From Candidatus Dormiibacterota bacterium (GTDB taxonomy: Bacteria > Chloroflexota > Dormibacteria > CF-121), in assembly GCA_035279665.1 (NCBI GenBank), contig DATEHI010000011.1, forward strand, positions 1,157 to 65,156: DNA of 64,000 bases. The letters run 5' to 3'. The notes beneath the pieces were generated by a model that was given only the letters and a program-made list of their open reading frames with translations, searched no databases and was not told the origin of the DNA. Positions 53,300 through 56,200 of this stretch are shown here, piece after piece. A program made the translations under genes and the position numbers. Position 1 is the stretch's first letter, and each line of letters starts with the position of its first letter.

Positions 53300-56200
53300 C
53301 TAGATGTCCAGGTTGCGCACGGTCTTGGCGTGCGTCTGGATGAATCGCTTGCGGGGATCGACATCGTTGCCCATCAAGACATCGAAGATCTTGTCTGCCT
53401 CCACCGCATCTTCGATCTCGACGCGCAGCAGCATGCGGTTCTGTGGGTTCATGGTGGTTTCCCAGAGCTGCTCGGGGTTCATCTCACCGAGACCTTTGTA
53501 GCGAGCGACTTCCGGCTTTCCGGTCATCTGCGCAAGCTTCCGATTCTTCTGTTCATCGGTATAGGCGTAGCTGATCTCTTTGCCCCGTGTGATCTTGTAG
53601 AGCGGCGGCTGCGCGATGTAGAGATATCGACCTGTGATCACCTGCGGCATGTAGCGGAAGAAGAAAGTGAGCAACAGCGTGCGAATGTGCGAACCATCGA
53701 CGTCAGCGTCGGTATTGTGAGCGGCGAGTCCACCTACTCCGCAAATGAAGTTCTCATCGCCTTCAACCGAGAAGTCGTACACCCATTCGCCGGTTGGATC
53801 GAGCTTCTCAACCCGCTTGACGTCGAGTCCGGCGAGATCGCGGCCAGCACTGGTCCAGCCTTGTGCCTTCTCGAGAGGCCGGTTCATGTGCGCCACGAGC
53901 GGGGTTGCAAGAGGATGACGGCCCCATACCGGTAGTGTCCTCCGCAGCTGGTCCTTGCCACCGACCGAAAGGATGAAGAATGGCTGCTTGGTTTGGATCG
54001 GCAGTGATGGATCGGTCGAGGCGACTCCGTGCCTCAAGCTCGCAAAGATTCCAAGCTGCCCAAGAAGGTAGAGCAGCCCATCTTTCAACATCGCGGAGTT
54101 CGTCGTAACCGACCAGTTCGTCTTGCCGACGGTGCCGTCTCCGAGGAAGTAGCCCTCGAGGAAATCGAGCTGGAGATCTTCGGGAAGGTTCAGGACCACA
54201 TCCGGCAAGCGCTTCTCGTGAGCCTTGCCACCAAGCCCCCAGGCTCGGAGTAGACGTGCGGCCATCACGCTGTGGAAATACAGCTTGATGCCAAGACTGT
54301 CGGGATCGTAATACGCTCGTGGCTTCTCGCCGAAAACATCCCAGACGACCCGGCGGAGCTCTTCGAGGAACGGCTCGTCCTTACGCCCAAGGCTCAAGCT
54401 GACCTGGTGCTTGCTCATACTGCCCTCGGCGACGTACCAGCCGAGGAACCACATCAGTTCAGGCGTAATGCCCAGATAGCGATCAAAGACCTTATTCTCG
54501 TGTGCCCTCGGCACGATCTGGATGTCGTGCCCGATACCGAGCAGATCCTCTTCCGTCAAGCCGTCCATCGGCTGATAGTCGCTGATGACTCGCCACCTAG
54601 CATTCTTGCTCGATGTATCTCGGTCGAGCTCCCTCTCGATCTTTGAGGGAAGCAACTGATGGGCGATCGGCTCACTCCAGCTAATAGCGCTCAAATACGA
54701 CTCGAAGCGAGGCTGTATGGGCCTGGATCGACCGGTCTCCCATTCGCAGATAGTGGCTGCCTGCTTGACCCCAAGGGTATTCGCGACCGCTTGTAGCGTC
54801 TGCCGACCTGCGGCTCGATGTGATGCCAGTCGACGCCAGTCCGCTGCGGCGACGACGACACGCGGCTCTGTCCACAGTTCTGGAACATCGAGCCTGGCGA
54901 GCATGCGGCTTGCGGCGTGCGCCCGAGCACTCTCACCCTTCATATAGAGGTCATCGGTTATTCCGGCACGGACGAACGTCTCGAGCAGATCGATGGGCCG
55001 CGGCTTGCCACGGCGCCGTGGCAACGACCGAGAAGCGACGAGCTGGTCGCCGACCTTCACTTCGCTGCCTCGCCGGAGTTTGATCTCCCCATCATCGAGG
55101 ACATAGACGCTATGAGAGCCGGTCACCGCGATCGACCGTCCATACCGGGTCGTAATCCTGTAGAGCGGTTCGTCATTGCGATGCCGGATCACCTCCTTCA
55201 GAGGCCGGAACCGCGTTTCTCCGGCACGCTCGTCGAACGAGATGACTTTGTATCCGCGGTAATCTCGGCGCCCCTCCACGCATTCATCGATGAACGCGCC
55301 GATCTTGACCAGCTCGATTCGGCCATCGGCATGCTGCACGAGCGTCGGTTCCTTCCCGTCCACGCTCATGATGATCACGTGGTGATAGCGCAGCTTATTG
55401 ATGTCGAATTTCTCTCCAACACCAGTGCCGAGCGCGGTGATGAGGTTGCGGATCTGCTCCGAGGTGAGGATCTTGTCTTCGCGGGCCTTCTCGACGTTGA
55501 GAATCTTGCCGCGTAACGGGAGGATCGCCTGGAAGCGGCGGTCGCGGGCGCCCTTCGCCGAGCCACCAGCGGAATCACCCTCCACGAGGTAGATCTCGCT
55601 GAGGCTCGGGTCGCGCTCTGAGCAGTCGGCCAGCTTGCCGGGTAGCGTCGACGATTCGAGCAGCGACTTGCGCTGCACCAGCTCTCGCGCACGCTTCGCC
55701 GCGTCACGAGCGCGAGCGGCCACCAGGCACTTCTCGATGATGCGCCGCGCATCGGGCGGGTTCTCTTCGAGGTACTGCGTGAAGGCGTCAGAGAAGACCG
55801 TCTCGACCTGACCGCGGACTTCGGAGTTGCCCAGCTTGGTCTTGGTTTGACCTTCGAACTGCGGCTCGCGCACCTTGACGCTGATCACGGCGGTCAAGCC
55901 CTCCCGCACGTCGTCGCCGGTGAGGTTCGGGTCCTGCTCGCGCATCATGTTCGCCTTGCGCGCGTACTTGTTGAGCACCGATGTCAGCGCCGAGCGGAAG
56001 CCGGTGACGTGGCTGCCACCCTCGACGGTATTGATGTCATTGGCAAACGCGAGGACGTTCTCGGTGAAGCCCTGGTTGTACTGCAGCGCGATCTCGACCG
56101 TGTTCTCTTCGATCTCACGCTCGACGTGCAGCGGCCGCAGGTTGACCCACCCCTTGTCGCGGTTGAGATACTTGACGAAGGCGCTGATGCCGCCTTCGAA

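Follow-up and report, generated by a model that had tools for sequence, protein, structure and literature searches.

Organization of the interrupted gyrB gene

The window analysed here, i.e. the whole stretch of 64 000 nucleotides (nt) from contig DATEHI010000011.1 of a Candidatus Dormiibacterota genome (accession number GCA_035279665.1), carries on its minus strand a gyrB gene whose open reading frame (ORF) is interrupted by an insert of exactly 551 amino acids (aa), located between ..HHVIIM and TDADVDG of the encoded protein (precursor residues 501-1051). This insert is very probably a class 1 (standard) intein, residing in the Toprim domain of GyrB and carrying a nested LAGLIDADG endonuclease together with an accessory helix-turn-helix (HTH) domain of the XRE type (Table 1).

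The GyrB nature of the interrupted protein is given by Pfam matches to HATPase_c, DNA_gyraseB, Toprim (split) and DNA_gyraseB_C, as well as by the NCBIfam gyrB equivalog TIGR01059, which scores 962 bits over two stretches of the precursor, the first of them stopping at residue 501, i.e. at the insertion point. The codon of Thr+1 (53711-53713) directly follows the GGLAAHN end of the insert. An initial annotation, made from the DNA letters alone, had proposed that GyrB is split exactly at IIM/TDADVDG (the slash marking the insertion point) by an element that begins with Ser, ends with His-Asn and is followed by Thr+1. The translation bears this out (Ser1, His550-Asn551 and Thr+1), the coordinates match, and both Escherichia coli GyrB and intein-less alleles are collinear with the exteins over the junction.

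Table 1. Positions of the gyrB precursor and its parts in the window (residue numbers refer to the intein unless GyrB is named)
Feature	Position	Strand	Evidence or remark
gyrB precursor ORF (N-extein, intein and C-extein)	53300..56866	-	1188 aa, TTG start; ORF list, Pfam, TIGR01059
N-extein, GyrB residues 1-500, ending inside the Toprim domain	55367..56866	-	Translation; alignments with E. coli GyrB and empty alleles
Intein, 551 aa, Ser1 to Asn551	53714..55366	-	Pfam, NCBIfam, PDB sequence search, AlphaFold2 model and fold search
HINT-N splicing part, residues 1-118	55013..55366	-	intein_Nterm; aligns with TFIIB mini-inteins 5o9i/5o9j and PI-PkoII
Ser1 codon	55364-55366	-	Block A nucleophile
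Block B, T82-G-S-H85	55112-55123	-	T82 and H85 kept in at least 90 % of the family
Middle accessory module, residues 119-300, from HINT-N to endonuclease	54467..55012	-	AlphaFold2 model (pLDDT 94.1); exhaustive search; dN/dS 0.047
XRE/Cro-C1-type HTH sub-domain, residues 174-228, four helices	54683..54847	-	Relatives, family profile and fold
HTH string of the initial annotation, residues 190-216	54719-54799	-	
LAGLIDADG homing endonuclease domain, residues 301-470	53957..54466	-	LAGLIDADG_3, PI-PkoII alignment, fold matches
LAGLIDADG motif 1, residues 304-316, LGWYVAEGS	54419-54457	-	Acidic residue E314
LAGLIDADG motif 2, residues 400-412, GYFLGDGT	54131-54169	-	Acidic residue D410
Linker/small accessory region and HINT-C, residues 471-551	53714..53956	-	intein_Cterm; PI-PkoII/TFIIB alignment to the terminal HN
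HINT-C block preceding block G	53738-53782	-	
Block G, GGLAAHN	53714-53734	-	
C-extein, GyrB residues 501-637 and stop, beginning with Thr+1 of the acidic motif TDADVDG (Toprim)	53300..53713	-	Translation; alignments

Removal of the insert in silico yields a GyrB of 637 aa whose alignment with E. coli GyrB is gap-free over the junction. Searching with this spliced sequence gave, at 95-99 % identity and 100 % coverage, more than 120 protein clusters with a length of 636-637 aa (630 aa in one case), several of them labelled Candidatus Dormibacteraeota, and empty gyrB alleles whose exteins are 99 % identical to those of the window are abundant. The base-by-base comparison was made for one empty allele only, i.e. 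P0114 from locus L082 (accession number GCA_035544955.1), while the other clusters were compared as protein. Locus L082 has the gene order gcvT-gcvH-gcvPA-gcvPB-gyrB-plsX-fabF-gyrA, of which the minus strand of the window shares gcvPA-gcvPB-gyrB-plsX-fabF; the spliced window gyrB and the L082 gyrB are both 1914 nt long and show 92.7 % nucleotide identity, no indels and six amino acid differences. In two further empty Dormibacterota alleles (L084/L085) the insertion site reads ..CACCACGTGATCATCATG/ACCGACGCTGACGTC.., also given as ..CACCACGTGATCATCATG/ACCGACGCTGACGTCGATGG... The 551 residues are thus a precise presence/absence polymorphism inside one clade.

Splicing domains and predicted fold

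Pfam Intein_splicing matches the insert over intein residues 14-551 (2.6e-15), and the NCBIfam models intein_Nterm (1.1e-9) and intein_Cterm (4.8e-4) both score over their curated cut-offs, so that chance is no viable explanation. In an alignment of 34 family members, the splicing residues Ser1, T82xxH85, D531, H550-N551 and Thr+1 are conserved, with exceptions at H550 in some members: D531 (block F) is invariant, N551 is, like the two block B residues, kept in at least 90 % of the family, all relatives retaining the N junction begin with SV, and the +1 residue is Thr, rarely Ser or Cys, wherever the junction is present. Several otherwise intact inteins of the same allele have another residue in place of the penultimate His in block G, i.e. 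Lys (KN) in P0009, P0010, P0026, P0033, P0045, P0048 and P0051, Glu in P0038 (EN), Arg in P0040 (RN) and Ala in P0065 (AN).

An AlphaFold2 model of the intein, built from the 34 family sequences, has a mean predicted local distance difference test (pLDDT) score of 93.5. Its top fold matches in the PDB are all endonuclease inteins (PI-PkoII with 7e-26, TliVMA, PI-PfuI, PhoVMA and PI-SceI), with mini-inteins and then free LAGLIDADG enzymes following lower down. The Intein_splicing match and the model, which agrees with solved inteins, both show a HINT fold split by an insert. Among proteins of solved structure, the strongest sequence matches are PI-PkoII (9.5e-23) and, from Methanocaldococcus, the TFIIB mini-inteins (1.3e-19).

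The endonuclease fold sits between the two HINT halves and matches those of PI-PkoII, PI-PfuI, PI-SceI, I-DmoI, I-Tsp061I and I-OnuI. Pfam LAGLIDADG_3 matches it in two stretches (8.6e-14), and both LAGLIDADG motifs noted in the initial annotation are present, each with a C-terminal acidic residue. These residues, E314 and D410, are kept in at least 90 % of the family, and the motifs pair with those of PI-PkoII in the sequence alignment. The presence of all splicing blocks and a two-motif endonuclease, along with the empty alleles and the wide distribution described below, agrees with the earlier view of a full-length mobile intein.

The middle module and its XRE-type HTH

The 182 residues of the middle module (119-300) were searched exhaustively against 1.84 billion cluster representatives, resulting in just 37 matches at E <= 1e-3, which were almost only GyrB precursors. 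All seven full-length matches scanned (around 1150-1340 aa) are GyrB precursors, and their orthologous segment matches HTH_3 or HTH_31, often over the cut-off; relatives over the cut-off include P0109 (HTH_3, 2.2e-12, 47 bits) and P0092 (HTH_31, 32 bits). Within the family of 34, HTH_3 is matched by 24 members and HTH_31 by 23 (E <= 0.01). A 69-column profile of the HTH compared with PDB sequences retrieved HipB (2.4e-6), HigA (1.4e-4) and P22 c2 (2.7e-3), as well as Aca3, MBF1/EDF1 and 434 Cro.

The module modelled separately with AlphaFold2 has a pLDDT of 94.1 and places the HTH helices at intein residues 174-186, 191-198, 203-210 and 218-227, the third of these being the recognition helix. 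Its fold matches among PDB and viral structures are exclusively XRE/Cro-C1 proteins, the best being DdrO, P22 c2, HipB, ClgR, C.Kpn2I and SinR, with phage CI/Cro-type proteins among them too; for P22 c2, the root-mean-square deviation is 1.3 Å over 55 residues, with a TM-score of 0.73 on the target. The E-values of these fold matches are weak (0.01-0.7), since only about 55-65 of the 182 query residues lie in the HTH sub-domain, and the fold search gave no recognisable structural match for the remainder of the module (residues 119-173 and 229-300).

Considering the matches of the relatives, the family profile and the modelled fold together, the HTH is real and belongs to the XRE superfamily, with the window copy as a divergent member. 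The initial annotation was therefore right in placing an XRE-type HTH between the splicing and endonuclease parts, although the window copy by itself stays below threshold and the domain is established only via its relatives, the profile and the fold. Residues Q202, T205, S207, W209 and E210 of the recognition-helix stretch, as well as P216, are conserved across phyla, in keeping with a DNA target that is likewise conserved, e.g. gyrB itself.

A 455-aa intein at the same gyrB site of a Gemmatimonadetes metagenome-assembled genome (MAG), P0069, is shorter by around 96 residues, and no HTH stretch could be aligned in it, suggesting that the HTH module may come and go as a unit.

Distribution, selection and mobility

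In a species-representative genome set, at least 80 loci carry the same intein at this gyrB site, usually with a length of 551 aa and a start of the form SV(A/D)G.EPTLV. The occupied taxa comprise Cyanobacteria, Dormibacterota, Acidobacteriota, Planctomycetota, Chloroflexota, Desulfobacterota, Gammaproteobacteria and one archaeon. The nearest inteins come from two Dormibacterota MAGs (86 and 74 % identity), followed at around 50-56 % identity by those of dozens of Cyanobacteria and of Blastocatellia, Planctomycetota, Chloroflexota, Limnocylindria, Desulfonema and one Clostridia MAG, and at around 32-37 % by those of Steroidobacteraceae, Thermoflexus and one archaeon. Both a sporadic presence/absence among close relatives and a spread across distant taxa at one site were observed. 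The intein is an ordinary member of a family that occupies one gyrB site in many bacterial phyla and is abundant in public genomes. Its size, which had been called unusually large, is normal for this family: around 551 aa is the standard length for the allele, PI-PkoII has 537 aa, and HTH-like accessory domains have already been described (PMC8966425).

Compared with the nearest intein-bearing relative (L002), the ratio of non-synonymous to synonymous substitution rates (dN/dS) was 0.085 for HINT-N, 0.047 for the middle module, 0.070 for the HTH, 0.072 for the endonuclease, 0.076 for HINT-C and 0.038 for the exteins; with dS close to saturation (1.3 to above 2), these are approximate values. 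Every domain of the intein is under purifying selection. In the same comparison, dS was higher in the intein (1.26) than in the exteins (0.69), and the GC content at third codon positions (GC3) was 0.70 in the intein, 0.84 in the exteins and 0.80-0.84 in the neighbouring genes. The low GC3, the dS excess, the low dN/dS and the spread are in line with a mobile element of foreign origin in which the splicing parts, the endonuclease and the HTH are all kept functional.

Within gyrB, the two extein stretches of 100 nt that border the insertion (window positions 55367-55466 and 53614-53713) are the most divergent 100-nt bins among Dormibacterota alleles. The differences are mostly synonymous, the protein there being nearly invariant, in occupied and empty alleles alike. 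A co-conversion tract beside the insertion site was considered and rejected, as empty alleles differ from one another just as much in these bins. The flanking polymorphism could be the footprint of repeated homing and loss, reflect endonuclease-resistant target variants or be plain local rate variation. A transposon or insertion sequence-like insertion was likewise rejected, with no flanking direct or inverted repeats being present, and no RNA family was found in positions 52000-58000. The possibility of a split gene or split intein, prompted by relatives starting with 'MSVAGDEPTLV', was dismissed as the window gene is one intact ORF.

Proposed mechanism

Taken as an endonuclease intein, the element would act as follows. 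The gyrB gene would be translated as the 1188-aa precursor, in which the insert lies directly before the DxD cluster (TDADVDG), so that the unspliced protein is presumably inactive. The DxD of Toprim domains is a metal-binding cluster. Splicing would start with an N-O acyl shift at Ser1, followed by the attack of Thr+1 on the ester, giving a branched intermediate. Asn551 would then cyclise with the help of His550 and free the intein, and an O-N shift would restore a normal 637-aa GyrB. The free intein is predicted to be a monomeric two-motif LAGLIDADG enzyme (E314, D410) that cuts empty gyrB at the sequence coding for IIM/TDADVDG, and repair from an intein-bearing copy would convert the empty allele (homing). 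The HTH (residues 174-228) would most likely add DNA contacts beside the core target, a role that has also been suggested for accessory domains in other inteins with an endonuclease.

Weighing of the alternative explanations

Several points weigh against an intein with functional endonuclease and HTH parts. The HTH copy in the window lies below the Pfam cut-off (HTH_31, 14.4 bits vs 27, E = 0.049), and in its recognition helix a Cys replaces one conserved Ser. The dN/dS values are, as mentioned, rough; the divergence of the flanks is no clean evidence for co-conversion, since it is also seen between empty alleles; and no phage or plasmid vector turned up in the phage and plasmid collections searched, matches in IMG/VR being only 21-33 % identical and restricted to the endonuclease and HINT-C part, with none including the middle module. 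Moreover, while the anatomy with its exact junctions, the fold, the empty alleles, the spread over phyla at one site and the purifying selection are shown, protein splicing, DNA cleavage and both the DNA binding and the role of the HTH are inferred.

The initial annotation had itself named the scenario that would speak against it, i.e. a lineage-specific GyrB insertion domain instead of an intein. No supporting point for such a domain turned up, and we attach next to no probability to it, considering that the segment has the full set of splicing blocks (A, B, F and G), that its modelled fold matches solved inteins and that GyrB proteins with 99 % identical exteins miss precisely this segment. 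The exact presence/absence of the 551 aa among close alleles argues in the same direction, and with the empty-allele search and the base-level alignment, i.e. the comparison with intein-less GyrB that the initial annotation had proposed for the exact junctions, a GyrB domain was ruled out: L082 aligns without indels, the clade alleles are 636-637 aa long and the exteins rebuild a contiguous GyrB. Deserving more attention, though still unlikely, is an intein that can splice but has lost its endonuclease activity, i.e. a vertically inherited resident that has reached fixation or decay in the homing cycle, with the HTH as a relic. Many endonuclease inteins are inactive, e.g. PhoVMA (PMC8966425), and the divergence of the window HTH from the family consensus, the loss of the penultimate His in some family members and the fragmentation of some family loci would all be in line with decay. 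However, both acidic LAGLIDADG residues are still present, dN/dS is as low in the endonuclease (around 0.07) and in the middle module and HTH (around 0.05-0.07) as in the splicing parts, targets are available given the abundance of empty alleles in hosts with 99 % identical exteins, and the low GC3 suggests an incomplete amelioration to the host genome.

It may also be speculated that the HTH serves a host-related or regulatory role instead of, or besides, target recognition, with the excised intein acting as an XRE-type regulator or DNA binding gating the splicing of GyrB. The module indeed has a bona fide XRE/Cro-C1 fold as in repressors and antitoxins, it is strongly conserved, and the intein is located at the catalytic motif of a DNA-handling enzyme. 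Nevertheless, we regard such a role as very improbable: there is only one HTH per monomer, while dimeric binding is typical of XRE regulators; the module is essentially confined to the GyrB intein family; the cross-phylum conservation of Q202, T205, S207, W209 and E210 fits a conserved target, e.g. gyrB; the same-site intein P0069 shows no alignable HTH stretch; and no operator-like repeat is present in or around gyrB. Equally far-fetched at present is the broader idea that the XRE HTH could turn the excised intein into a DNA-binding regulator, make splicing DNA-responsive or let the lineage persist as a free-standing HO-like endonuclease. An endonuclease intein in which the HTH assists target recognition therefore remains the explanation that we prefer.

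Free-standing homologues

Free-standing homologues of the intein are rare, being found in four actinobacterial species. Two of them, P0095 of Streptomyces smaragdinus RB5 (L087, 5001-6662, 553 aa) and P0097 of Actinomadura rupiterrae (L089, 4001-5740, 579 aa), are collinear with the intein end to end, with 29 % identity to the window intein and 44-48 % to the nearest true GyrB inteins, which are their closest relatives. They lie 112 nt (P0095) and 7 nt (P0097) downstream of uninterrupted gyrB-like genes (711 and 708 aa, respectively). P0095 is without Ser1 (start MGVGG..), the block B His and the terminal HN, and retains both LAGLIDADG motifs and the HTH. The adjacent gyrB-like genes read LL/VDADVDG and IL/ADADVDG at the corresponding site, and hence offer no +1 nucleophile. 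Such splicing-dead homologues beside uninterrupted gyrB-like genes hint that the lineage may leave its host gene, and, by analogy with yeast HO, the actinobacterial homologues may go back to an intein that became an independent endonuclease gene of the HO kind.

Antisense ORFs and implications for annotation

Numerous plus-strand ORFs overlap the gyrB gene, and the initial annotation had regarded them as antisense artefacts of the insertion. Antisense artefacts they are, with no Pfam match in any of the five that were tested, but the insertion is not their cause: plus-strand ORFs of 80-200 aa are equally frequent over the intein, the exteins, plsX, fabF and gcvP, and thus are the usual antisense ORFs of coding DNA with 64 % GC. 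In the neighbourhood, the mechanically called gcvPB ORF (56980-58638, minus strand, 552 aa) overlaps the end of gcvPA (58452-59783, minus strand) by 187 nt; its true start is probably around 60 codons downstream of the first GTG, since the L082 orthologue has 491 aa.

For annotation, this means that the 1188-aa ORF should be recorded as an intein-containing gyrB with a mature product of 637 aa, that internal HTH and LAGLIDADG matches represent no separate genes or regulators, and that the antisense ORFs are to be ignored. NCBI labels on fragments of window-type inteins are 'LAGLIDADG family homing endonuclease' or 'helix-turn-helix domain-containing protein'. While the finding leaves the understanding of how inteins work unchanged, uncultured Dormibacterota, in which occupied alleles exist beside empty ones with 99 % identical exteins, offer a good natural system for homing studies.

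Comparison with known systems

GyrB inteins have been recorded in Chloroflexi, Cyanobacteria, Proteobacteria, Actinobacteria and haloarchaea (PMC4760082, PMC4071816, PMC6390638, PMC9348778), and in the one limited literature collection searched, neither a GyrB intein with an XRE HTH nor a site name for the insertion point was found. A different GyrB intein is known from the cyanobacterium Planktothrix agardhii, in the same host protein and co-occurring with a window-type allele, but located at another site, i.e. after EGDSAGG, around 65 residues upstream, and with a Cys start (CFLGSTL..) and an unrelated sequence. This Cys-start intein is probably of the classical cyanobacterial 'Ssp GyrB type'. 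The window allele therefore represents a second gyrB intein site. In P. agardhii 1812 (L001, 4033-8082, accession number JAKGOP010000001.1), gyrB carries both inteins, after EGDSAGG (Cys start) and at IIM/TDADVDG, but is broken into three ORFs, and part of the extein between both sites is apparently missing; the locus is a pseudogene or else reflects an assembly problem. The protein start 'MSVAGDEPTLV' found there results from the fragmentation of gyrB upstream, inside the other intein.

The closest solved counterpart is PI-PkoII (PI-TkoII), i.e. intein 2 of the Thermococcus kodakarensis DNA polymerase (PDB 2cw7), which shares with the window intein the order HINT-N, extra region, LAGLIDADG and HINT-C at a length of 537 aa, and whose LAGLIDADG motifs, LLGYYVSEGY and FLEGYFIGDGDV, are near-identical to those of the window. 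In contrast to the latter, it is archaeal and resides in a DNA polymerase, and it aligns only to intein residues 35-119 and 300-551, leaving the 180-residue middle module with the XRE HTH unaligned by sequence; an HTH-like accessory domain and an extra 'domain IV' have been reported for PI-PkoII (PMC8966425). TliVMA (PDB 7qss/7qsu), the second-best fold match, is likewise an endonuclease intein with an HTH-like accessory domain. However, this domain lies between the endonuclease and HINT-C, whereas the window HTH lies between HINT-N and the endonuclease, and its HTH resemblance was described from the structure, while the HTH of the window family is detected as XRE/Cro-C1 by sequence profiles. 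By sequence, the closest HINT domains are those of the Methanocaldococcus TFIIB inteins (Mja/Mvu, PDB 5o9j/5o9i), with which the window intein shares the xVDxxEP start and the GGxxxHN end, although their solved forms are mini-inteins from another host protein and the solved constructs have no HTH module.

Beyer et al. (2022) described that accessory domains alter the cleavage-site choice of endonuclease inteins and that two of these domains resemble HTH proteins (PMC8966425); the authors proposed that inteins recruited accessory domains from transcription factors. The gyrB allele described here, as a natural endonuclease intein with a profile-detectable XRE/Cro-C1 domain, fits such a recruitment of DNA-binding domains from transcription-factor families (PMC8966425).

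A LAGLIDADG fold joined to an extra DNA-binding domain is also present in yeast HO and in bacterial WhiA, the latter being among the fold matches of the intein model (8dy9). HO is a free-standing protein derived from an intein. Neither HO nor WhiA splices; unlike both, the element in the Dormibacterota gyrB keeps all splicing residues.

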